DNA of 52,478 bases, from IMG/VR virus record IMGVR_UViG_3300025646_000058, positions 1 to 52,478 of that record. One strand, written 5' to 3'. The notes below the pieces were generated by a model. That model worked only from the letters and a program-made list of their open reading frames with translations, made no database searches and was not told the DNA's origin. The position numbers and the translations under genes are program-made. Position 1 is the stretch's first letter. The number at the start of each line of letters is the position of its first letter. This document shows, piece after piece, positions 1 through 40,169 of this stretch. The DNA comes from a virus (lineage: Duplodnaviria > Caudoviricetes).

Positions 1-114
1 AGATTTTATATTTCTAATTAAATCTTCCTTAAATACAGGGTTATACGTACTATCAAAAACTTGTGCTAAACCTCTACCTTGCCCTTGCGATAAACCTAGT
101 GAATCGCCTTGCAT
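1..114 (-). CDS. Partial CDS running off the left edge (MQGDSLGLSQGQGRGLAQVF...), possibly an internal virion protein
   Basis: ATG at 114, 13 nt after the stop of 128..907, open to position 1; not in the ORF track. Confidence 0.6.
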   Translation of the reverse strand, partial: MQGDSLGLSQGQGRGLAQVFDSTYNPVFKEDLIRNIKS

Positions 115-127
115 TGAATCAAAACTA

Positions 128-907
128 CTATCCATTATTTAACCAATTAAAACCACCACTAAAAGGAGGTACAATACCACCTAAAGAAGAATAATCATCT
201 TGTGCTTCTAGCATATCAGGTAATCCACCTTGTTGAGAAGTATTAATATTATTGCTTTGATTTATGTATGGATTAGTAAAAGTAAAATTAGTATTGCTAC
301 CAGAAGTTTTGTTAGTGTTATTGTTTGGCAAGTTAAAATTAACACCTTTACCGCCCATATACCTATCATACATATCGTAATCAAGTAACATTTTAGAACT
401 ATCAGTTAATCCACCCATCACATTCTGCATACCTGCACCAATTAATCCTTCTGCCATTCTCATTTGATTTAAGAAAGGCTCAAACTCATTTAATTGGAAA
501 TTCATATCTCTCTGCCTACCCATTTCAGCTCTGTTAGCTTGTAGGTTCTGCAAATTGTTTAACCTCATATTAGCATCGGTTGAAGCTAACTGATTTAACG
601 CATCTTGTTGTTGTTGATACACATAAGGTACTCCTGCAATTCCTGCCTTTCTATCTCCTAACTGTCTTAACGCATTTTGCTCTTGGCGTTGCATTTGTTG
701 TAAATACATATTCCTAGTAGCCTCTGGCATACCTTCCAATGCTTGTGTTTTAGCTTGGGTTAAGTTTTGCTGTACCTCCTCTGGGATTTCTCTCATTGGT
801 CTTTCAGCTCTCGCTTTTCTTCTACCCTCTAAAAACTGCAAAATACCAGTACCGCTTTTTACTGCTGCTGGTATTCCTGTTACTAAGCCTAATGTTATCG
901 GATCCAT
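128..907 (-). CDS. Putative internal virion/ejection protein
   Basis: Gly/Ala-rich N-terminus and Gln-rich helical body; follows tail genes in the virion operon. Confidence 0.5.
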   Translation of the reverse strand: MDPITLGLVTGIPAAVKSGTGILQFLEGRRKARAERPMREIPEEVQQNLTQAKTQALEGMPEATRNMYLQQMQRQEQNALRQLGDRKAGIAGVPYVYQQQQDALNQLASTDANMRLNNLQNLQANRAEMGRQRDMNFQLNEFEPFLNQMRMAEGLIGAGMQNVMGGLTDSSKMLLDYDMYDRYMGGKGVNFNLPNNNTNKTSGSNTNFTFTNPYINQSNNINTSQQGGLPDMLEAQDDYSSLGGIVPPFSGGFNWLNNG

Positions 908-1159
908 TTATATCTTATTAATTGTGTAACATATTCCACTTGTCGCTAAAGATACACACACAATTTGTTGTATATCATAACTCAAAAACAAAGATAATAA
1001 AATCCCACAATATAAACCAATACATTGTGGACAACTTATCATTACCCCTAACTTAGCACTTTTTAAAGTTAGATACTCCCTAAATCCCTTTAAAATGTAA
1101 CTCTTTGTTATTATCATAGCTAATCCATAACTAGATAATATACTGATAAATATATTCAT
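908..1159 (-). CDS. Small membrane protein, DUF1360-like
   Basis: Hydrophobic helices with SCPQCIGLY, resembling the CPxCxG motif of DUF1360. Confidence 0.55.
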   Translation of the reverse strand: MNIFISILSSYGLAMIITKSYILKGFREYLTLKSAKLGVMISCPQCIGLYCGILLSLFLSYDIQQIVCVSLATSGICYTINKI

Positions 1160-4100
1160 TATCTTAAATTTCTTTCAGATGGTGCGTAGTTTAACCCTAC
1201 TTGATATACCACTTCTTTTAGTTTTGAGTTAGTAATTAACTTAACTAAGAAACTTCTATCCCTCATTGCATCACCATTGATTTTAGGAAACTCCTCATTT
1301 ACAGTATTTACATCCCTCCAAACTTGCGAATAGTAAATATGCTCCTTACCATCAAACACTAAGTTATCTATATCTTCCTCTAAGAAGTCGTAAACATCAT
1401 TAGTAGTTTCCTGCCCATTTCTAGTTTCTATAATTACATCAAATGGAGTAGTAGTATGTAATGCTATTGACTTAGCAATTTTATTTTTATCCCTTTCCGC
1501 ATTAAAAGGTATCCATAATTCTGATTGATTATTTATACCATAGAATGTTGAATGATTTTCGTTTTGGTCATGTAAAAATAAAGCACCCCTATTAAATGAA
1601 GCTAAAGTTAAACCTATTGAACATAAGTATTCAGGCGTATATGAATAATAAGTTGTCCAATGCTTTGTTGTTTCACTAAACGCTAAAGTAATTGGTTTAA
1701 TATTTATCTCTTGCTTTCTTTCGTATTTAGGTAGGATAGGACTTGTACTAATTGTGTAGACTCCTGTTTCAACATTTCGTTCAATAGTAGTTTCTGTTTC
1801 AAATCCAGAAACATTATTCAACGTTTCAGTTGTAAATAAAATATCCGTACTTTCAGGAACTAACATTGTTTCAACTGATACAGTACCGAAACTTATATTA
1901 CCCACTACTGGAGGTATAAATAATTCCCTAGTTAATTCACCAAAAGCAACTACTAATTCCTCATAAGCTGTATCAAATGAAGTAAAGATTGTAGGCACTA
2001 TTTCACTTGCTAAGTATTGCCCAAACTTATCCTCAAAAAACTCTTTCATTTTTATATCGGATAGTAAAGTAATACCATCATTACTTAACCTACATACCGC
2101 CCCACGTTTATAATCTACAAAGTATCTTTGATTACCATTGTAACAGAAACTTTCAGGGTTTAACGCTATTCCATATTCTCCTGTATAATACACAATTTTA
2201 GATAGTACCTTCTCACTAGCAGCAACAGTACCCTGTCCAAATTGGTCAAATATAACATTCTCCTCCACTAAGATACTTCCTACTTTTAATTCCTGGTAAC
2301 AATCTAATCTTTTATTAAATGAATGTAATCTTTGAATACTACCATAAACTCTATCGTATTGCTCAAAGTTAACATCAAAGAAACTATTTAAGCCATTGAT
2401 TGAAGTTTCAGGTATAAATCTATCACTATAATAAATCGTTGTAGGTCGTCTTAATTGTTTAATATCCATATTAACAATATTAGGTCGCCCTGCATCAGTT
2501 GTTATAAAACTTCTATCAACAAAATCATTAACATAATTAGACTCTACAAATTCACTTGAATAAGTAGTTTCTGTAATAGGCATATTCCTTTGGAATAAAT
2601 AAGTATCTCCCGAAGTGAATTTAACTATTGCAGGTTCAGTGTCTGTTTGGTCTTGTACGTTACCTTTGTGTAATCCATTTTCAATTAGATAAAACTCGCC
2701 TATCTCAAAAAACAAGTTATTCTCTACATCTTTTAATGGAGTATATATCTCAAATAAATCACCACCATTTGTACTCAATGAAGGTAAGTTAAATTCATTA
2801 CGTAAAGTTAAAACTCCTGTACCAATATCATAAGATAAAATCTCTAAATCAAAGCGTGTAGAAAATGGGAAACCTTCCGCACTCTTTATAAATCTTATTC
2901 TATCTCCCTTTGTAAATGTATATACTAATTCACTTCCTTTGTTTACTTCGTTATAAATGTTTACTATATTGTCTATGCTTATATTAATTGTGTAACCATC
3001 ATTACTTGATGTTACATCACCCGATAACGTTTTGTATTCAGTTGTTTTAGAAATGAATTGTATGTAGTTTGTAAAGTTTAATTTCTTAGTTCTTACCCAA
3101 GCATAATGTGTCGCCCATTCAGGTGCTTTATTATACAAGTATCCGCTTACTATTGGTACTGATGAAAATGCGTATTGTGTAGGGTCACCCAAAACACTTT
3201 GTAAACCTATCTTAACCTTATCAGTAAAGAATGGTAAATCTAAGCGTAAATCCTCAATAGTGTTTACTGCTCCACTTCTATTCGCTCTATCATAATAAAC
3301 TATACCAAACTCATAAGATGCACCACGTTTTAAAAAACTAGTACCTAAACCAAATGTAGTTACAGCTTCTATATTACCTAAATCTAATCCAATTTCTGAA
3401 TTATATATTTGTATAGCAGGATCATTGTTAATATCCAAATACATATCAACATTACCCACAATATTATCAGTAACGTTATATCGTATTTGACTATTATTTG
3501 TAAATCCATAAATTGTGCCTGTATATCTTGATTGATTTAAACTTTGTGCAAAGTTATTAAATGAATCAGCGTAAACTATAATATCAAAGTAACCGTTTGA
3601 ATCTGTAAATTGATTATCACCTCTTTCAGCTAAAACAATTAATCCTGGTACAGAACTACCATTATTATCTACTATCCTACCACTTACGTTTGATTTAACA
3701 CTATCTAAAGCAAATCTATTTTTAACTTGCGCTAATAATAATAAACCATCATTATCAGTTGAAGGTATGTTAGTAATAACAGATAAACTTTCTAAAGCTC
3801 CTTTATACATTATTAAAGGAGTTTGTAGTGAGCCTTGTTGTATCGTTAAGAATTGTGTAACATCCGTTTTAATAAAGAAAAATCCGTTATGATCCGTAAA
3901 AGTAAATTTGTTAGCGAAATATCTACTTTGCCCTGCTACATAATTTCTGTTAGCTGTATAAAAACCTTCTGGTATATCATTAGAACCTTTATAATTTATC
4001 CTACTGTAAGTAACCCTTTGTTGCCCCCTTACATCATTTGTAGTGTTATAAGTTTCAGCTTCGTTATCATGTAAATATCCAAATGAAATAGTGTTATCTA

Positions 4101-5892
4101 TGTTCAACTCTTTTCTTTGAGTAGCTAAATTAACCCTTATCTTAGGATATGTAATATCAGCAATTTCAGTTGTGCCAATTTCTTTTACCTCACCACCTTC
4201 TACTTTTACTTTACACTCACAACCATCAATACCACCTACACGCATTGTAAAGGTAGAAGTTCTTTCATACGGTCTTGTAATATCATCATACTCTTCCTTA
4301 GTTGTTAAATGGCTAGCTATCCTTAAAATATATTCCCCATCAGGAATACCTTTTAATTCAAATTCACTATAAACAGCTTGCTGCTCCATTAAGTCAACTA
4401 TCCTTTCAGTATTAACTCTGTTTACAAAAAATACATTTGTAGAACTCATTATATCTGGGGCAACCCTCCTTTGCTTACTTATAGTCTTATAGTTAGTTCC
4501 AACTAAATAAACTACAAATCCAGCTAAAGGAATAGGGTTGTAATATAGTCCATTATTCAGATATTCTTTTTCAGTATCACCATCAGTAGAGTTGTTTCTA
4601 GCTATTAAAGCATGAGCTGTACTTACACTACCGAAATAAGGCTTACCACTATTATCACCATTTAAGTATCTTATTGGTTGACATCTTTGAAACGTTATTG
4701 AGTCATAATACTTTTCACCAATAGCAGCTAAACTTAGGTTTGGTACACCTAATACTCCTGCTGGCATATTGTTTACGTTTCTTATATATATTCTACCCTT
4801 AATTGTGTTTAATTCTTCGTCAGGTAATTGTGCATCCTCAAAAGCTTCATATTGAACATCTAAATCAGCTTCTACTTCTACATTATCATAATCCTCTATA
4901 ATATCACCATACACAATTCTATTACCCTCAATTAACGCCTGCGTTCCAGCTAATAAAGGTAACTTATCAAACAATTTAAGACTATCCCTTACATCAACTA
5001 ATGAATAGTTACCATCGTTATAGAAGTTATATACAAAATCCCCATTACCACTTTGCTCAAAAAAACTAACTGGCTTATCTAAAATTGAAATAAAATCTTT
5101 ACTCTCACTATCTCTTGCTACTATCTCTACACGCTTAACTAATTTACCACCCGAAGGCACAATTACTTGTATAGCGTTATTAAACTGATTAGTAGTTTGT
5201 ATATATGAAGTGTTGCTTATAGTCTGTTTTGATATAGGACTAAATGCACTCTTCTCTCCATCATCATATATGTATCTTGCTTTAAACTGCCATAATTCAT
5301 TACGGAAGTAGTTGACATCAAATTGTGTATCCGTAAAATATTTACTTGTAGGCGGATATAATGGCGGATATTTAACTGCATCAATAATATCTAAGGTAAT
5401 AGGTAAATCATATTTATCTCCTGTTAAACCTGTATTAAATGCTCTTATTGATTTACCAATATTAAATTTTCTTGGTGGATTTAATCTATCCACAAAATAA
5501 ATTAATTGGTTATCATTATCTAAATCCAATACATTCACATGGGTAATCAAATGCTCCTTACTGAAATTCAATAAAGGCGAAATCATAACCATTATGCTTT
5601 GGTCTTGTAGCAAATTATATTGAACAATATGGTGGTCGCCATTACTGTTGTGGTTGAAATAATAAACAATATTATCCCTTTTGTATTCGTAAGCACCAAT
5701 AGTTGTATTCTCTCCTTCTGGTAATTCAATATACCTTATCTCATTACCCTTGCACAATTCAACTGCGTTCTTATTTTCTGAATCACTAGATCCAATTCTT
5801 ACATTTACAGCTTTTCGGCAATAGCCATTTTCCACATCTCTTTCGTCTGTGTCGGCATCCATACCATAAACTACTCGTCTATTCTCTACCAT
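1159..5892 (-). CDS. Tail stabilisation/nozzle protein (crAss-like, P22 gp10-like position)
   Basis: 1577 aa; GMDADTDER..AVNVRI start, YEFGIVYYDRANRS, YGIALNPESF and YFVDYKRGAVCRLSNDGITLLS motifs typical of this family. Confidence 0.75.
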   Translation of the reverse strand: MVENRRVVYGMDADTDERDVENGYCRKAVNVRIGSSDSENKNAVELCKGNEIRYIELPEGENTTIGAYEYKRDNIVYYFNHNSNGDHHIVQYNLLQDQSIMVMISPLLNFSKEHLITHVNVLDLDNDNQLIYFVDRLNPPRKFNIGKSIRAFNTGLTGDKYDLPITLDIIDAVKYPPLYPPTSKYFTDTQFDVNYFRNELWQFKARYIYDDGEKSAFSPISKQTISNTSYIQTTNQFNNAIQVIVPSGGKLVKRVEIVARDSESKDFISILDKPVSFFEQSGNGDFVYNFYNDGNYSLVDVRDSLKLFDKLPLLAGTQALIEGNRIVYGDIIEDYDNVEVEADLDVQYEAFEDAQLPDEELNTIKGRIYIRNVNNMPAGVLGVPNLSLAAIGEKYYDSITFQRCQPIRYLNGDNSGKPYFGSVSTAHALIARNNSTDGDTEKEYLNNGLYYNPIPLAGFVVYLVGTNYKTISKQRRVAPDIMSSTNVFFVNRVNTERIVDLMEQQAVYSEFELKGIPDGEYILRIASHLTTKEEYDDITRPYERTSTFTMRVGGIDGCECKVKVEGGEVKEIGTTEIADITYPKIRVNLATQRKELNIDNTISFGYLHDNEAETYNTTNDVRGQQRVTYSRINYKGSNDIPEGFYTANRNYVAGQSRYFANKFTFTDHNGFFFIKTDVTQFLTIQQGSLQTPLIMYKGALESLSVITNIPSTDNDGLLLLAQVKNRFALDSVKSNVSGRIVDNNGSSVPGLIVLAERGDNQFTDSNGYFDIIVYADSFNNFAQSLNQSRYTGTIYGFTNNSQIRYNVTDNIVGNVDMYLDINNDPAIQIYNSEIGLDLGNIEAVTTFGLGTSFLKRGASYEFGIVYYDRANRSGAVNTIEDLRLDLPFFTDKVKIGLQSVLGDPTQYAFSSVPIVSGYLYNKAPEWATHYAWVRTKKLNFTNYIQFISKTTEYKTLSGDVTSSNDGYTINISIDNIVNIYNEVNKGSELVYTFTKGDRIRFIKSAEGFPFSTRFDLEILSYDIGTGVLTLRNEFNLPSLSTNGGDLFEIYTPLKDVENNLFFEIGEFYLIENGLHKGNVQDQTDTEPAIVKFTSGDTYLFQRNMPITETTYSSEFVESNYVNDFVDRSFITTDAGRPNIVNMDIKQLRRPTTIYYSDRFIPETSINGLNSFFDVNFEQYDRVYGSIQRLHSFNKRLDCYQELKVGSILVEENVIFDQFGQGTVAASEKVLSKIVYYTGEYGIALNPESFCYNGNQRYFVDYKRGAVCRLSNDGITLLSDIKMKEFFEDKFGQYLASEIVPTIFTSFDTAYEELVVAFGELTRELFIPPVVGNISFGTVSVETMLVPESTDILFTTETLNNVSGFETETTIERNVETGVYTISTSPILPKYERKQEINIKPITLAFSETTKHWTTYYSYTPEYLCSIGLTLASFNRGALFLHDQNENHSTFYGINNQSELWIPFNAERDKNKIAKSIALHTTTPFDVIIETRNGQETTNDVYDFLEEDIDNLVFDGKEHIYYSQVWRDVNTVNEEFPKINGDAMRDRSFLVKLITNSKLKEVVYQVGLNYAPSERNLR

Positions 5893-20934: not shown

Positions 20935-21477
20935 TTATAATACTAAATATAAATCACCAACAACAGCAGCAAACGGTAAAGTATCAGCAGTTGCTACAAC
21001 ACCAAACTTAGCGTTACCAGCAACAGCAGGAATGTTAATTACTGTTTGTCCTACTACTAAACCACCGAAATCAGTAGTTGTACTTGTTGAAGTAGCTACG
21101 ATTTTTCTAACTAATACGAAGTTAGGTAATCCAGATACATCAGTTCTGATAGTCAAAATTCCTAATGAGTTACCATCTTCATCATAACCGATTTTTGTTA
21201 AATCAGTATCTAATGATTGTGCGCTTTTTACTCTGTTTGTATTTAAAGCAATATCAACAGCCGAACTGTCCTCTACTGTTTGAAATAAAACCTCCGAAGC
21301 TAATACTAAGTCCTCGATAGCAATATCTGCCTCTACTGTATTAGCAAAGCTTTCTGCTTTGTTTTTGTAAGTTACAGAACAAGTAGATGCACCTGTACTT
21401 ACTACTGTGATAATATCTAAATCGTTAATTAAAACTTCATTACCACTAACATCATTTAAAACGTGTAATTTTGCCAT
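20935..21477 (-). CDS. Hypothetical, probable virion protein
   Basis: 180 aa, Val/Thr/Ala-rich, followed by a terminator. Confidence 0.55.
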   Translation of the reverse strand: MAKLHVLNDVSGNEVLINDLDIITVVSTGASTCSVTYKNKAESFANTVEADIAIEDLVLASEVLFQTVEDSSAVDIALNTNRVKSAQSLDTDLTKIGYDEDGNSLGILTIRTDVSGLPNFVLVRKIVATSTSTTTDFGGLVVGQTVINIPAVAGNAKFGVVATADTLPFAAVVGDLYLVL

Positions 21478-21500
21478 TTTGTATTTTTTAAAAGTTTATA

Positions 21501-21764
21501 TTACTCTATATCATTTGTTACCTCTACATCAACACCCTCAAAGTATTTCCATATTACCCTATTCCCATCTTCACGCTTTACCTCAATTATATATCGTTTA
21601 ACCCCATACAACTGTAAGTAATTCTTATCTCTATAAATATCACTTATAGATACCCTTTTCCCCCTCACCATAAACTCCTGACCTAATCTTAAACTAAAGG
21701 CAGTATCCATTCTACCATATACCTTTAATTCATAAATACGACCAGAATCCATATCGTGTAACAT
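21501..21764 (-). CDS. Conserved phage hypothetical protein
   Basis: 87 aa ORF with its own promoter; GQE..I.DI..WK.F pattern. Confidence 0.55.
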   Translation of the reverse strand: MLHDMDSGRIYELKVYGRMDTAFSLRLGQEFMVRGKRVSISDIYRDKNYLQLYGVKRYIIEVKREDGNRVIWKYFEGVDVEVTNDIE

Positions 21765-21781
21765 ACTAATACTTTTTTTAG

Positions 21782-21812
21782 CAAATATATAACAAATTGT
21801 GTAACCTACAAA
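21782..21812 (-). promoter_or_regulatory. Bacteroidota promoter TTTG-N19-TATATTTG with the dispersed motif in its spacer
   Basis: Both elements with 19-nt spacing; motif at 21795-21803. Confidence 0.65.
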
Positions 21813-21972
21813 AATTATATTAAAAAATAAGAGGCTGTTGTATTTGTCCTAGAAATACGGATCATGTTAGCCAATTTCCCCTTATTGTTTATTATTACAA
21901 ATTGTGTTAGTATAAGCAGGTTAAAATCCGTTGGTTTTTATAGTGCAAAATTTTGAATTGCGTAAACAGAGA

Positions 21973-22954
21973 TGTTAGCAGTAATACTACATTTCATCTC
22001 CGATTGAAGTTACTACTGTAAATTCTTTTTCTTTTCTTTTTTCTTCCACCCTCTTTAAAGAAATATTAAAATAATCCATATTATTCTCAATTCCTATAAA
22101 GTTTCTATTGGTATTTATACAAGCAATTCCTGTTGTGCAACTTCCAAATGTATTATCCAAAACAATATCGTTTTCATTACTAAAAGTTTCAATAATATAT
22201 TCTAAAACTCTTAATGGTTTTTGTGTTGGATGAAATCTTAAATCAATATCACTTGAATATTCTTTTGATTTTTGCGGTGTAAATGGTACTCTCCCACTTA
22301 TTATTGATAGTGGGTTTCGCTCTCCTGTATCAACTTTCCTTGTTCTTGTTGTAGGAGAATAAATGGTATTACCAACATATTCATTTTCTTTAAATGTTTT
22401 TCTTTGTGTAATAAACTCTTTTTCCTCAATCAACCATTTTTGTGGATTGTACATGTATTTATTATCAAATGAAAAAACAATTATATTTTCGTGAATTTTT
22501 TGATGTTTTTGGTTTGTTTGCATACCACTACCCGCTTTGTTTTTTAACCAAACAACTTCCTCTTTAAAGCAAGTTATATTAGAATTAATCATTACAGTTG
22601 TAAATGGTTGTGAGCCAAACAATACAATTGGTTTATTTGGCTTTATAATTCGTTTGTATTGTTCCCATAATTTATCAAATGGTATAATTGTATCCCAAGA
22701 ACAACTTGTCGTTCCATAAGGTAAATCACAGCAAATAAAGTCAATACTTTTGTCAGGTATCAATTTCATTTGTTCTATTGTATCTCCGTATCTTAAATCT
22801 ATTGTCATAATTTTATTTTAATATTTTTACCACCACTCAAAAAAAAAAAAAAGAAAAAGGTTCAGTTCTATGAATGAGCATTTGTGGTTAATTACCGTAC
22901 TACTGCTAACAGCGTATAAAAAACATTAAAACGATTTTTTATACGCAAAACGTT
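21973..22954. mobile_element. Integron-cassette-like module carrying a DNA methyltransferase
   Basis: 15-bp inverted ends with 1 mismatch (21973-21987, 22897-22911) and an adjoining AAC..GTT hairpin. Confidence 0.55.
21987..22808 (-). CDS. DNA methyltransferase, N4/N6 beta class
   Basis: Catalytic DLPY, HPTQKP, SAM-binding VLDNTFGSCTT. Confidence 0.9.
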   Translation of the reverse strand: MTIDLRYGDTIEQMKLIPDKSIDFICCDLPYGTTSCSWDTIIPFDKLWEQYKRIIKPNKPIVLFGSQPFTTVMINSNITCFKEEVVWLKNKAGSGMQTNQKHQKIHENIIVFSFDNKYMYNPQKWLIEEKEFITQRKTFKENEYVGNTIYSPTTRTRKVDTGERNPLSIISGRVPFTPQKSKEYSSDIDLRFHPTQKPLRVLEYIIETFSNENDIVLDNTFGSCTTGIACINTNRNFIGIENNMDYFNISLKRVEEKRKEKEFTVVTSIGDEM

Positions 22955-22961
22955 ATTAAAC
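22901..22961. repeat. attC-like hairpin
   Basis: TACTGCTAAC-A-GCGTATAAAAAA-N11-TTTTTTATACGC-AAAAC-GTTATTA; 12-bp perfect stem between AAC and GTT. Confidence 0.6.
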
Positions 22962-23159
22962 ATTTTCAAAACCTGTCATGTTTGCACAATTAAGACATTC
23001 CAACTCAACCAATCCTAACGGTCTTACCGCTATCCATTCATAGGTACATATATCGCACTTTACAGTTGATACTTCGTGAGGTTCATTTTCTAATTGTGTA
23101 GCCATCTCCCTTATTTTTATACGTTTCTTCCTTAATGATTTTATTTTATTAATTATCAA
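22956..23159 (-). CDS. Small zinc-ribbon protein
   Basis: CDIC..CLNC; stop codon abuts the TAAC of the hairpin; start uncertain. Confidence 0.6.
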   Translation of the reverse strand: MIINKIKSLRKKRIKIREMATQLENEPHEVSTVKCDICTYEWIAVRPLGLVELECLNCANMTGFENV

Positions 23160-23176
23160 ATAGTTATGAAAAATAA

Positions 23177-23599
23177 TTAATTTTGCTTAATAACCTTTTC
23201 TGCAAAGATACCATTTCTGTGTAAACATAAACCAATACCAGAACTATCCCATACAGTTAAATTATTATCATTAACTATAATACAAAGTCCACTATAAACA
23301 TATTCCTTATTATCAACCAATGAAATAACTATATCACCTTTATTATACCTCTTATCAATATCATCTGTGCTAATCACTAAATCTTTCTCGATGGCTGCAC
23401 AATTTGAAATCGCCCTCTCCAAATACCACTTCGCCTTCTCCAAATCCTCCCTTACATTATCACTCTTCTTTCCTGCCCTTGATATATACTTAATTACATT
23501 ACCTAAACTAAAATCTAAATTCCAAGCCTCTATTACTTTTATTGCTTCATATACGCTTTCTTTACCACCGTAGTGGTTTGGGTGATTTACTTTTTCCAT
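23177..23599 (-). CDS. DUF3310 family protein (T7 gp1.7-like)
   Basis: VNHPNHY, GNVIKYISRAGKK, EDLEKAKWYL. Confidence 0.85.
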   Translation of the reverse strand: MEKVNHPNHYGGKESVYEAIKVIEAWNLDFSLGNVIKYISRAGKKSDNVREDLEKAKWYLERAISNCAAIEKDLVISTDDIDKRYNKGDIVISLVDNKEYVYSGLCIIVNDNNLTVWDSSGIGLCLHRNGIFAEKVIKQN

Positions 23600-24389: not shown

Positions 24390-24992
24390 TTAATTTATCC
24401 ATTTAATTACTGTTTCTCCTTTATAACCCTTTTCCCATACATACCAAGCATAAGCTACTGCACTACCCTCCTTTTTCTTACTCTCAAAATCACCATTCTT
24501 TGCACACATTATCCTACTGCTTGATACATACACAATTCGTGGCGGAAACTCCATAAACAACCTCTTCCTCCCCTTACCCTCCATAAACTGTAACTTCAAA
24601 AACATAGCAACCTTCCTACCCTCTGGTATTATACTTAACGCCTTATAGATAAACTCACTCGAATACTTATATGGCGGATTAGTTATTATGTCGCCTTCCC
24701 ATTCCAAATTGTGTAAGCCTAAGAAATCAACTCCACCCTCTCCATATCCCCTATCCACCAAATCCGTACTCCTCACTTCATACCCATTACGCTCAAATAC
24801 CTTACTCAAATGACCCTGACCACAACTACACTCCCATATACGCTCACTAAACGTTTCCTCCCTCAACAACAACTCTGCTGCTATTGGGTCTGTTGCGTAG
24901 AAGTCTAACTCCTCCCTATCCTTGTCTGTGTGATTACTTGCGCCTAATGTCTTATAAACGCTATTACTGTTTCCTGTCCAATCTTTACTCAT
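24390..24992 (-). CDS. DNA N6-adenine methyltransferase (phage type)
   Basis: DFYATDP, IWECSCGQG, IITNPPY, YAWYVW; likely start MSKDW at 24992 because a -7 element at 25021-25028 lies inside the longer ORF. Confidence 0.85.
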   Translation of the reverse strand: MSKDWTGNSNSVYKTLGASNHTDKDREELDFYATDPIAAELLLREETFSERIWECSCGQGHLSKVFERNGYEVRSTDLVDRGYGEGGVDFLGLHNLEWEGDIITNPPYKYSSEFIYKALSIIPEGRKVAMFLKLQFMEGKGRKRLFMEFPPRIVYVSSSRIMCAKNGDFESKKKEGSAVAYAWYVWEKGYKGETVIKWIN

Positions 24993-25316
24993 TTTATTTA
25001 CCTTTAAATTAAACCTGCAACAAAGATAATTACTATTCACCATTAAAAAAATTTTTGCAAAAACGTTTCCTGTATCCATACGGTGGAGAAAGTAGACTTT
25101 ACCCTTGATAATCAGTACTTTACAAAAATCACTTTTTTGCGAAAATTACCCCGAAAATTACAAAACGTTTCCTCTTTTTTACCCTTTATTTGCAAATTCA
25201 AGTATTTTATAATAATTTTACCCCCGACAATTACGCTAATTGACTTGTCGCAGTTCTTTATCTTTATCTAATTTCGGTGATTACTCGGATAATTCAAACA
25301 ATACTGTGGATGTGTT

Positions 25317-25587: not shown

Positions 25588-26004
25588 ATGCCATTTGAAA
25601 AAGGGAATAAATACGGCACTAAAAAAACTGTAAAGCCTTATAAAACTAAGCAATTAACAAAACGCAAATTAAACCACAAGCCACGATATAATAATAATAA
25701 CGTTTTAATGTTCCATTCACTTTTGGAAAAAAAAAATGTTCCGAAGGCTTACTTATCTACTATGCTAAACATTAGCACGCCTAAAATAGCAACTAGATTA
25801 ATTAACACGCCTTTAAATCTTACTTTACAACAACTATTAAATATATCCTTCCTGTTAGATATTAATATAAATGATTTAGTTAATGTTATTATAGAGGATT
25901 TGCACTATTTAAATTGTGTATCATCCTCAAATGAACAAATAAAGCCATTTGTATCAGAAGAAGTAAAAATATTACACAATTCAAGCGAATGGTTTAACCG
26001 TTAA
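25588..26004 (+). CDS. XRE/Cro-type HTH protein
   Basis: LLEKKNVPKAYLSTMLNIS..LTLQQLLNISFLLDININDLV pattern; N-terminal MPFEKGNKYG. Confidence 0.65.
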   Translation: MPFEKGNKYGTKKTVKPYKTKQLTKRKLNHKPRYNNNNVLMFHSLLEKKNVPKAYLSTMLNISTPKIATRLINTPLNLTLQQLLNISFLLDININDLVNVIIEDLHYLNCVSSSNEQIKPFVSEEVKILHNSSEWFNR

Positions 26005-36980: not shown

Positions 36981-37737
36981 AATAAAGTAAAATGAACAAA
37001 ATATTTAATGACAACGCAATAGCAATAATGGACAGGATGATTGCTAAAAACTATAAAGTTGATTTAATTGTAACAGACCCTCCATATAAAATTACGGCAA
37101 GGGGTAATGGTGGAAATAGTGGGGGTATGTTTCAAAAGAAAGAAGTTAATAACGGTAAAATATTTAAAACTAATGATTTAGAAATTGAAGATTGGTTGCC
37201 GAGATTTTACAATATACTTAAAGATAATTCACATTGTTATATTATGACAAACAATAAGAATATAACAAATTACTTAAAAGTTATTGATACCATGTATTTT
37301 AATGGAGATAAAAAACAAAAATTTCATTTCATTAAAAATCTTATATGGGTAAAGGATAATAAAATAATGGGGCAAACCTATATGTCACAATTTGAATATG
37401 TAATTATGCTAAGAAAAGGAGAGCATAAAAAGATAAATGATTGCGGTACTTCTGATGTTTTGCAATTCCCTAATAAAAAGATGAAAGGAGAAGACGGAAA
37501 AACAATTCACGATACCGAAAAACCTATCGACTTAATGAAAGTTTTAATTCAAAATTCATCAAACGAAAATGATATTATTTTTGAGCCTTTTATGGGTATT
37601 GGAGCAACTTGTATTGCTAGTTTATTATCAAACAGACAATATATTGGCGTTGAACTTGATGAACACTATTTCAAAATTTCAGAAGAACGATTAAAAAAAG
37701 CACTTGATAAAGTTGAATTAGATAAATATTTGAAAAA
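36938..37737 (+). repeat. 39-bp direct repeat pair bracketing the MTase gene
   Basis: 36938-36976 and 37699-37737, 35/39 identical, both encode ALDKVELDKYLK. Confidence 0.9.
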
Positions 37738-37750
37738 AGAAAAGTTATGA
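36992..37750 (+). CDS. DNA methyltransferase, N4/N6 beta class
   Basis: VTDPPY, HDTEKP, FEPFMGIGAT. Confidence 0.9.
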   Translation: MNKIFNDNAIAIMDRMIAKNYKVDLIVTDPPYKITARGNGGNSGGMFQKKEVNNGKIFKTNDLEIEDWLPRFYNILKDNSHCYIMTNNKNITNYLKVIDTMYFNGDKKQKFHFIKNLIWVKDNKIMGQTYMSQFEYVIMLRKGEHKKINDCGTSDVLQFPNKKMKGEDGKTIHDTEKPIDLMKVLIQNSSNENDIIFEPFMGIGATCIASLLSNRQYIGVELDEHYFKISEERLKKALDKVELDKYLKKEKL

Positions 37751-39518: not shown

Positions 39519-40169
39519 ATGAAGAAGGCAATTGTGTATATAAGAGTTTCAACTGATGACCAAGCTAATTCGGTTGAGATGCAAGAAGAAAAGTGTGTAG
39601 CATACTGTAATTTTCATGGCTACACAATTGATGGCGTTATCAAAGATATAAACATATCAGGAAGCAGTAAACTATTCACTAGAGAGGGAGGTAAACAACT
39701 TAAAAGTATTAAAGATGTAAATATTATTACATTAAAGCTAGATAGGATGTTTAGGAATGTTCTAGATTGTTTAAATTCTTTGGATCATTTCACAGAGAAT
39801 AATTGTGCATTGACCTTTGTTGATATGGGAGGTATGAGTATGGATACCTCAAGTTCTTTAGGTAGGTGGTTTATTACTATGCTTTCAAGCTTTAGTGAGT
39901 TGGAGCGTAATATTATTGCAGAGCGTACTACTTCGGTTTTAAGGAGTAAAAAAAGTAGAGGTGAGCAATACAATGGTACAGCACTATTTGGCTTTAAATA
40001 CGTGGATAAAAAGATAGTTGAAAGTGAGGATATTGAAATAGTTAAGGATATAATCGCAAGGTTAAAGCGTAAAGAAAAAAAAGCGGATATTTGTAGGGTA
40101 CACAATTTGCCGAATTTTAAGAAGATTTACAACATACAGAAAAGAGAAGAATATAAATACCTTTGGTAA
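39519..40169 (+). CDS. Serine recombinase, resolvase/invertase family
   Basis: YIRVSTDDQ catalytic Ser, KLDRMFRN, SELERNIIAERT. Confidence 0.92.
   Translation: MKKAIVYIRVSTDDQANSVEMQEEKCVAYCNFHGYTIDGVIKDINISGSSKLFTREGGKQLKSIKDVNIITLKLDRMFRNVLDCLNSLDHFTENNCALTFVDMGGMSMDTSSSLGRWFITMLSSFSELERNIIAERTTSVLRSKKSRGEQYNGTALFGFKYVDKKIVESEDIEIVKDIIARLKRKEKKADICRVHNLPNFKKIYNIQKREEYKYLW

Follow-up and report, generated by a model that had tools for sequence, protein, structure and literature searches.

A candidate methyltransferase cassette of an integron-like recombination system in phages of Bacteroidota

The DNA analyzed here is IMGVR_UViG_3300025646_000058, a virus record (Duplodnaviria; Caudoviricetes) of 52,478 bases, hereafter called the window, and the element in question is a DNA methyltransferase gene enclosed by inverted repeats. 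The segment from 21974 to about 22951 is probably a single cassette belonging to a site-specific, integron-like recombination system in phages of Bacteroidota, a reading to which we assign a probability of roughly 0.6. Integrons are regarded as bacterial devices, and to our knowledge phages have been reported merely as occasional carriers of integron parts. What is described here suggests that a gene-capture platform is common among phages and encoded by them, with a recombinase and a site design of its own kind. In its full form, on which we would lay about even odds, the proposal is that large lytic Bacteroidota phages carry their own analogue of the integron, made up of a short Xer-like recombinase devoid of the IntI insertion, an attI-like TAAC|TATNATATATA site (the bar marks the cassette boundary) and arrays of reversed cassettes with a single open reading frame (ORF) each. 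The hairpins of these cassettes and their pair-specific 14-nt arms, in which a G.T pair marks the strand, would be recombination sites folded from one strand, counter-defence genes (for methyltransferases, Tad6 and ADP-ribosyltransferases) would be captured and traded among phages through them, and solitary cassettes would be dispersed products. The platform could have arisen independently of bacterial integrons or be their sister lineage.

The methyltransferase cassette and its junction hairpin

An earlier note on this DNA, made from its letters alone, had described a 15-bp inverted repeat with one mismatch around the methyltransferase gene. The repeat is present as described, with TGTTAGCAGTAATAC at 21973-21987 and its reverse complement, with one mismatch in 15 nt, at 22897-22911. 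On the sense strand this mismatch reads as a G.T pair; all 15 positions therefore pair there, and on that strand only. The arms proper, from 21974 to 22910, form 13 Watson-Crick pairs and the G.T at position 11, the pattern of the armed cassette family described below. The parts of the cassette and of its junction are as follows.

21974 to 21987, minus strand: 3' arm, sense strand GTATTACTGCTAAC; pairing reaches 15 with 21973, and the cassette boundary lies at ..TAAC|
21987 to 22808, minus strand: N6/N4 DNA methyltransferase of 273 aa (PF01555 N6_N4_Mtase, E 7e-27; phrog_67)
22809 to 22896, minus strand: leader of 88 nt from the 5' arm to the ATG, containing a long run of pyrimidines; kept in methyltransferase cassettes of the same type
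22897 to 22910, minus strand: 5' arm, sense strand GTTAGCAGTAGTAC; all 14 positions pair with the 3' arm, with G.T at position 11
22912 to 22946, minus strand: junction hairpin with a perfect 12-bp stem and an 11-nt loop (22924-22934), sense strand TCGTTTTAATG
22947 to 22958, minus strand: 5-nt spacer and ..TAAC core on the sense strand, AAAAC-GTTATTA on the plus strand; outer core of the attC-like site

As in the family, the cassette has a sense ORF with its stop in the 3' arm: the methyltransferase stop TAG (21987-21989) overlaps the first base of the arm and ends 13 nt from the cassette end. The stop of the 67-aa ORF upstream (22956-22958) lies within GTTATTA, and the earlier note had likewise placed both stops near the cores. 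A scan of the window for arms found this one armed cassette only. Counted in the window alone, 15-mers like the repeat gave 7 matches with up to 3 mismatches against 2.75 expected, which is weak evidence; the counts from the family, given below, are strong evidence.

The hairpin that the note had drawn between AAC and GTT, with a perfect 12-bp stem and an 11-nt loop, was confirmed and folds better than shuffled sequence. Folded as DNA it reached -10.6 kcal/mol on the plus strand (z -2.73, with 0 of 200 shuffles as good) and -12.3 kcal/mol on the minus strand (z -3.11, with 2 of 200 shuffles as good). Next to it stand ..CTAAC-A at one end and AAAAC-GTTATTA at the other (GTTATTA at 22952-22958), giving a site with AAC...GTT cores, unequal spacers of 5 nt and 1 nt, and the 12-bp stem; the proposed crossover lies beside 22951/22952. 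A second, half hairpin that had been suspected at 21944-21976 did not hold up, since that stretch folded no better than shuffles (z -0.38 and 0.09), though its sequence recurs as a flank. The loop motif has one exact match in the window and one with a single mismatch (at 25700), against 2.41 expected by chance. An Rfam scan of 21400-23400 with E up to 10 returned four chance-level matches, none of them at the hairpin.

The limits of the cassette were also apparent from an isolated phage. The DNA match to Flavobacterium phage mymlan6-1 extends from window 21974 to 22911, arm to arm exactly, and the similarity ends at GTTAGC / GCTAAC, the outer ends of both arms. Within this match the window methyltransferase and mymlan6-1 gp007 are near-identical at both ends and diverged in the middle of the gene. 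Cassette limits at the GTT/AAC cores, as first suggested, agree with this match and with two sequences that carry another cassette at the same site (locus L125 and a contig of run X9, below).

Mosaic methyltransferase genes were also seen between unrelated phages. When the window gene (21987-22808) is compared with that at 2835-3623 of locus L001, the ends and the leader are near-identical and the middle is diverged, with insertions and deletions; at the level of sequence, such mosaics suggest exchange of the target-recognition part. A leader of 88-100 nt is conserved in the window and in L001, L014, L050, L067, L071, L095, L098 and L108, and may be a regulatory RNA element. In the mymlan6-1 annotation a 38-aa ORF, gp008, is placed in this leader. 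Contig depth in four metagenome runs showed spikes of 48-270 at 22044-22147, a conserved methyltransferase motif, and at 22876-22979, the arm plus hairpin, and these short pieces are therefore common to many other genomes in the same samples.

A family of armed cassettes in viral contigs

A scan of viral contigs with the arm pattern matched at least 120 stretches. Among the matches listed, the middle triplets of nearest arm pairs were complementary in 48 of 52. A free scan, in which GTTA plus 10 nt was paired with 10 nt plus TAAC over all 14 positions with at most one G.T, yielded 100 fully paired pairs in 916 kb and none in shuffles, and in 95 of these pairs the G.T was at position 11. At least 53 arm sequences are represented among the 100 pairs, and the arrays contain as many as nine cassettes. 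In mymlan6-1, three neighbouring methyltransferase genes are each armed; their middle triplets vary between genes and are complementary within each gene, and at one shared position G always stands in one arm and A in the other. A wider scan of this locus added two more armed cassettes, one of them for another methyltransferase. Across all viral loci, 251 simple cassettes were distinct from one another, and their median length was 310 nt. In 234 of the 251 the longest ORF lay on the arm-defined sense strand, and the stop codon supplied by the 3' arm fell 13 nt before the cassette end in 76 (the commonest class) and 1 nt before it in 49.

The junctions between cassettes are imperfect palindromes that share a layout of TAAC, about 5 nt, a stem, a loop (11 nt or 60-70 nt), the second side of the stem, 1-2 nt and GTTA. 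When 34 distinct junction stems were aligned, 93.9% of cells were paired, compared with 69.8% in shuffles, and there were 131 two-sided changes against 41.8 in shuffled alignments (0 of 500 shuffles as high), while slid controls gave 37-51%. The window hairpin fits this alignment, with its invariant AAC and GTT columns and covarying stem. The TCGTTTTAATG loop was found in 105 distinct contexts across loci, 83 of junction type and 20 'empty' hairpins. Whether the hairpin flanks varied ORFs had been put forward as a check, and it does: the exact window stem lies 5' of different cassettes in L072 and L233, and 5' of the same arm type in L054.

The 'empty' cassettes consist of short arms (GTTA+5 nt / 5 nt+TAAC) around the 11-nt loop TCGTTTTAATG alone. 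They were observed at L213 2308-2378, L216 327-397, L218 8893-8963, L239 8915-8985, L251 255-325 and 15 other sites, several of them directly 5' of the attI-like junction.

Arrays end beside a tyrosine recombinase gene

A single tyrosine recombinase gene was found in four of the five large array-bearing records, about 0.35-1 kb from the array end and on the same strand. Eighty viral loci were then gathered solely by homology to one 266-aa recombinase. Upstream of the recombinase gene these loci have 191 cassettes on its own strand and none on the opposite one; downstream there are 2+2, and shuffled sequence yielded 8 in 1.10 Mb. Among the loci with at least 1.5 kb of upstream sequence, 51 of 55 had a cassette and 40 had two or more. 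The array meets the recombinase gene at a conserved junction, TAAC|TATNATATATA, 37-106 nt upstream of the gene. Here the TAAC of the last cassette is followed by a conserved TAT-N-ATATATA, and cassette-to-cassette junctions start with G and the palindrome. The junction pattern was present in 43 of 66 distinct upstream regions, and close variants were seen by eye in most of the others.

The recombinase is 264-270 aa long and has the domains PF13495 and PF00589. Its scores against the curated Xer and integron-integrase families all fell under the cut-offs. The best families were XerA/integron integrase, at 169-195 bits (cut-off 220), and the integron integrase TIGR02249 gave 151-161 bits (cut-off 265). 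The nearest solved structures were Pyrococcus XerA-like 4a8e, then VchIntIA 2a3v, XerA 5hxy and XerD 1a0p. Between two matched stretches, 34 recombinase residues face 82 residues of VchIntIA, and the IntI-specific insertion is therefore absent. The neighbouring genes encode a Dda-like helicase, an RNA ligase, an NAD ligase, a clamp, a sigma factor, an endolysin and homing endonucleases, a gene content by which these neighbourhoods are assigned to large lytic phages. In L229 (9844-13261) an NAD-dependent DNA ligase gene appears to be split by an HNH homing endonuclease gene.

Relatives of the recombinase, at 40-56% identity, were found in many Bacteroidota genomes. In 17 of 80 Bacteroidota loci there were 30 arm pairs, 29 of them with the G.T, compared with 3 in shuffles, in two layouts. 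The cultured phages Ingeline and Freya have integrases only 36-41% identical and few arms. In Freya and Cellulophaga phage Ingeline (records including L373) the integrase gene is preceded by ..TTGTTGCTAAC|ACCC. Among the Polaribacter phage isolates Freya_1 to Freya_10, the sequence before the integrase gene varies by as much as about 4.1 kb, with match starts from 83 to 4180.

Replacement of the cassette at its site, and polarity

The backbone on either side of the cassette site is made up of the following features.

21501 to 21764, minus strand: 87-aa ORF, backbone, downstream of the cassette site; 100% identical in the L125 record
21944 to 21973, minus strand: post-cassette flank, backbone common to L125; similar sequence follows other cassettes in L071 and L370
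22956 to 23159, minus strand: 67-aa ORF, backbone, upstream of the cassette site; also in L125, inside the 98.6% identical flank

L125 is 98.4-98.6% identical to the window in both flanks and carries another methyltransferase cassette at the same site, with 818 other bases between window positions 21977, where homology restarts, and 22937. This insert contains a larger palindrome as well as an ORF of 227 aa, which has a DPPY motif and matches D12 methyltransferase weakly, and the arms of the ORF are a different 14-nt pair, again with G/A at position 11. The same replacement was seen in a 3,037-nt contig of run X9, from another sample (joint from 21977 to 22943, with 824 letters between), and runs X6 and X7 carry the window allele. 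This comparison covered assembled contigs, which drop rare forms, from 4 of 24 runs. RNA runs held only 0.05-0.09 of the words. Homology breaks at, or a few bases from, GTTA/TAAC, and the core is shared, so the exact bond cannot be read from these joints.

A search with the 87-aa neighbour gave four loci, of which L371 and L372 lack an insert that is present in L370; with its degenerate 5' arm and extra sequence, this insert makes for an unclean empty-site comparison. The L370 insert (about 3400-4000) of some 590 nt comprises a palindrome, a 126-aa ORF, a ..CTAAC end and the recurrent flank. It lies between genes that are adjacent in L371 and L372, with TTTTTTGATA at both edges. A ..GTTTAYRCAATTCAAWWTTTTGCAC-like sequence stands 3' of the last cassette in three unrelated contexts (window 21944-21973 and L125 3229-3260; L071; L370 at about 3880-3915) and could be a landing or end-of-array sequence for arrays that lack a recombinase.

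The recombinase-proximal junction sets the crossover side, on the gene strand, at ..TAAC|. On the opposite strand, which is the plus strand of the window, the order is recombinase gene, attI-like site and G|TTA-cassette-palindrome-G|TTA, the layout of an integron but with every ORF reversed. The unit swapped in L125, hairpin plus arms plus ORF, agrees with the polarity derived from the junctions. The earlier note had read the same polarity on the plus strand, from a starting GTT at 21974 to the hairpin site at the end. Twelve pairs of similar cassettes were found in different contexts; four pairs share the upstream junction only and none the downstream junction only, which agrees with this polarity as well.

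Cargo of the cassettes

The cassettes encode 212 proteins of at least 40 aa, which fall into 196 clusters at about 60% identity. Representatives of the 80 largest clusters were compared with Pfam; 28 had a family and 52 had none. DNA methyltransferases make up 16 of the 28 (13 N6_N4, one D12, one MT-A70 and one weak C5 methylase match). Others are the Thoeris inhibitor Tad6 and three proteins of ADP-ribosyltransferase type (two ART-PolyVal and one weak PARP), and the remaining eight include two RNA ligases, an exoribonuclease, an acetyltransferase, a phosphatase and a tRNA synthetase. Judged by these family assignments, counter-defence functions are recurrent among the largest cargo clusters. 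The platform would thus carry hundreds of unrelated small genes, of which those that can be named are often counter-defence genes. Orphan methyltransferases of phages have an established role in anti-restriction, and by analogy the putative function of the window cargo is methylation of phage DNA against host restriction.

The window genome

The window has an estimated completeness of 83%. Terminase, portal and structural genes are on its minus strand and replication genes on its plus strand, and the phage encodes a RecE-like exonuclease. Three further genes are relevant to recombination or methylation.

24390 to 25079, minus strand: methyltransferase gene (phrog_799), without GTTA/TAAC arms
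36992 to 37750, plus strand: methyltransferase gene (phrog_67), without GTTA/TAAC arms
39519 to 40169, plus strand: small serine recombinase of 216 aa (PF00239; PHROG integrase/invertase), directly 5' of the primase-helicase gene and the sole recombinase found in the window

With the cassette gene, the two unarmed genes bring the methyltransferases of this phage to three. The serine recombinase was considered as the acting enzyme and rejected; its family is missing from all five array-bearing records. The motif ACACAATTTGTWATA has 14 matches in the window with up to 2 mismatches, against 1.69 expected, and none in the cassette; if this is the genome-wide motif that the module was said to lack, that statement was correct. 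Examples are at 21788-21802 and 21893-21907 on the minus strand. Before the 87-aa gene the motif has, by eye, a context of TTTG ... TAnnTTTG, similar to that of Bacteroidota promoters. GC skew is about -0.03 to -0.12 in the cassette and -0.36 to -0.58 in the flanks.

Proposed mechanism and alternative explanations

No recombination event was seen, and we therefore infer the mechanism. On the sense strand the cassette consists of a junction (..TAAC, a 5-nt spacer, the hairpin and 1-2 nt), the 5' arm of GTTA plus 10 nt, the leader, one ORF with its stop in the 3' arm, and the 3' arm of 10 nt plus TAAC. The arms, complementary over 14 nt with the G.T at position 11 on the sense strand only and A.C on the other, would fold with the junction palindrome into a long site after the cassette has become circular. 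In other, larger phages, where arrays run into the gene for the 264-270-aa recombinase through the attI-resembling TAAC|TATNATATATA junction, the recombinase would cut out and insert cassettes at the GTTA/TAAC cores, and, as in integrons, folded single strands would be its most likely substrate. The window phage lacks such a recombinase, as the earlier note had noticed, which makes its cassette a solitary one that probably moved in trans. The cassette would have been placed or exchanged by an enzyme of a co-infecting phage or of the host, or by recombination with a cassette-bearing relative. The trans-acting enzyme may have come from another phage rather than from the host; relatives also occur in Bacteroidota genomes. 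If this mechanism is true, it explains how anti-restriction methyltransferases are swapped at fixed sites, for which the window and its 98.5% identical twin are a worked example. It would also provide a simple sequence rule by which viromes could be searched for unknown anti-defence genes. Further, a minimal enzyme of Xer-like type, possibly active on folded single strands, would bear on the origins of integron integrases.

A number of observations weigh against this reading. A PF00589 tyrosine recombinase was not found in the window record, in the L125 record or in the complete mymlan6-1 genome, so that action in trans has to be assumed; the window record, at 83% completeness, also lacks the TAAC|TATNATATATA junction that its relatives have. 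Neither a circle, an empty site, an inversion nor a strand-change joint was present in the contigs of the four runs, in which rare forms can be missed, and no joint at the cores was seen in them. An empty-site allele, which the earlier note had proposed as a check, was not found among close relatives (the best 80 of 505 loci with a DUF3310 neighbour, among which L125 is the sole close relative). Eight of the 12 similar cassette pairs share neither junction, and units running from arm to arm therefore also travel by themselves; this is not expected of a strict integron mechanism and agrees with homologous exchange at the arms. Among the matches listed, an exact partner within 3 kb was missing for 62 of the 114 distinct matches to the 5'-arm pattern; these are chance matches, locus ends or diverged arms, unsorted. 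The arms of one cassette lie 100-2000 nt apart in arrays, where a role for their pairing is only putative. In L001 (5399-6242), L115 and L088 the reading frame continues across the 5' arm, whose translation is Val-Ser-X-Ser-Thr. In these three cassettes a conserved methyltransferase N-terminus directly follows the 5' arm, and from the sequence the true start may lie within the junction or ahead of it.

The chief alternative is that cassettes are exchanged by homologous recombination at expression signals, the arms possibly having an RNA role. Here the conserved ends would be a terminator-like hairpin, a leader and an RNA stem around each cistron, shuffling would proceed by homologous recombination at such short common sequences, as with the promoter-stem-loop modules of T4-type phages, and the recombinase would have another job. 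We regard this as unlikely, while noting that it accounts for several features: the G.T pairing works on the mRNA-sense strand only, a conserved leader precedes the ATG, stops are embedded in the arm, the window phage has a RecE-like exonuclease, and the methyltransferase cassettes have a mosaic build, conserved at the ends and diverged in the centre. The cassette pairs that share neither junction belong here as well. Arms of 14 nt are short for homologous exchange, however, and with 53 kinds of arm the homology shared between cassettes is lowered, not raised. Nor does this explanation sit well with arrays that strictly end next to the recombinase gene, where a conserved junction lies 37-106 nt upstream of it, or with a strand bias of 191 to 0.

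[quoted passage not shown] Part of its support comes from published work. Qi et al. 2023 (PMC9892861), in the passages bearing on this point, report 17 CALINs in 10,705 phage genomes and treat them as bacterial integron parts carried by phages. Among them, as given there, is a CALIN of Polaribacter phage P12002L with two N6_N4 methyltransferase genes, predicted by attC tools, and one of the two P12002L attC sites tested recombined with attI1 under IntI1. The P12002L methyltransferases match that of the window, and its hairpins have the window's loop and nearly the same stem; these hairpins may or may not be the sites tested in PMC9892861. The P12002L parallel counts in favour of the cassette reading preferred here as well. 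By eye, 9-bp arms surround one of the P12002L methyltransferases; the strict 14-nt arm scan found none in this phage. AAC...GTT cores around an imperfect palindrome, and an integron integrase among the nearest curated families of the array recombinase, also favour a true integron. Opposed to it are an array recombinase without the IntI insertion (34 vs 82 aa in VchIntIA) and with TIGR02249 scores well short of the cut-off, ORFs that are all reversed relative to site polarity, arm complementarity over 14 nt with a fixed G.T instead of a 7-nt core, and a site at which Rfam found nothing. Of the earlier proposal of an integron cassette, the anatomy and polarity are largely retained, and the type of recombinase, the direction of the ORFs and the length of pairing depart from it.

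A tyrosine recombinase could instead flip each ORF between its own inverted arms, as an invertible gene switch. Pair-specific inverted repeats around single genes beside such a recombinase are what a switch would have, and tyrosine recombinases need core identity between partner sites. This is very improbable given that 0 of 191 upstream cassettes are flipped, that the longest ORF lies on the sense strand, as set by arm asymmetry, in 234 of 251, and that no strand-change joint occurred at the locus in the contigs of four runs, where rare forms can be missed. A non-autonomous transposon of the miniature inverted-repeat transposable element type, moved by a distant transposase, or a chance repeat, is the least credible explanation of all: terminal inverted repeats of 14-15 nt and a 15-mer count that is not significant in the window alone would suit it, but the flanks of 48 cassettes show no target duplication by eye, the arms vary between cassettes yet keep their pairing, the link is to a tyrosine recombinase and not to a transposase, and chance is ruled out by 100 arm pairs against 0.

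Comparison with known systems

A cassette of a phage-borne, integron-like system, the reading preferred here, can be set beside four kinds of known element. T4-type phages have promoter-stem-loop modules, short conserved intergenic hairpin elements that bracket small variable ORFs in large lytic phages. The conserved hairpins between small variable ORFs are alike in the two cases, and we know of no pair-specific inverted arms and no dedicated recombinase in the T4-type modules.

The phage CALIN of P12002L resembles the window as an integrase-less phage locus with N6_N4 methyltransferase cassettes and AAC...GTT palindromes. By the definitions given in parts of PMC4889954 and PMC9892861, a CALIN has two sites, and the window has one complete junction hairpin. 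The passages of PMC9892861 that concern these loci contain no long covarying arms, G.T position, reversed ORFs or phage-borne recombinase with an attI-like junction. A wider literature search likewise found no description of long covarying arms, the G.T, reversed ORFs or a phage-borne recombinase with its own junction, and nothing on this architecture besides PMC9892861.

Xer-type recombinases and the phage recombinases are alike in size, in domain order (PF13495 followed by PF00589) and in their catalytic C-terminal motifs. Unlike the Xer enzymes of dimer resolution, those of the phages are placed at the end of a cassette array behind a conserved junction.

Bacterial integrons, as set out in parts of Cury et al. 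2016 (PMC4889954), share with the phage arrays a tyrosine recombinase that ends an array of diverse, mostly single-ORF cassettes, imperfect palindromes with AAC/GTT cores, a distinct site beside the recombinase gene, a strand-asymmetric structure, and the occurrence of solitary cassettes and enzyme-less arrays. The differences are equally specific. The recombinase of the phage arrays, at 264-270 aa, lacks the IntI insertion. A canonical integron ORF runs from the GTT start toward attC, whereas the ORFs of the phage arrays point toward the recombinase gene and 191 of 191 are co-oriented with it. The start of a phage cassette is complementary to its own site over 14 nt, compared with 7 in integrons, and the asymmetry of the phage sites would stem from the G.T/A.C position where that of integrons stems from their known extrahelical bases. 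By the tests run on these sequences, the system is integron-like and not a canonical integron.

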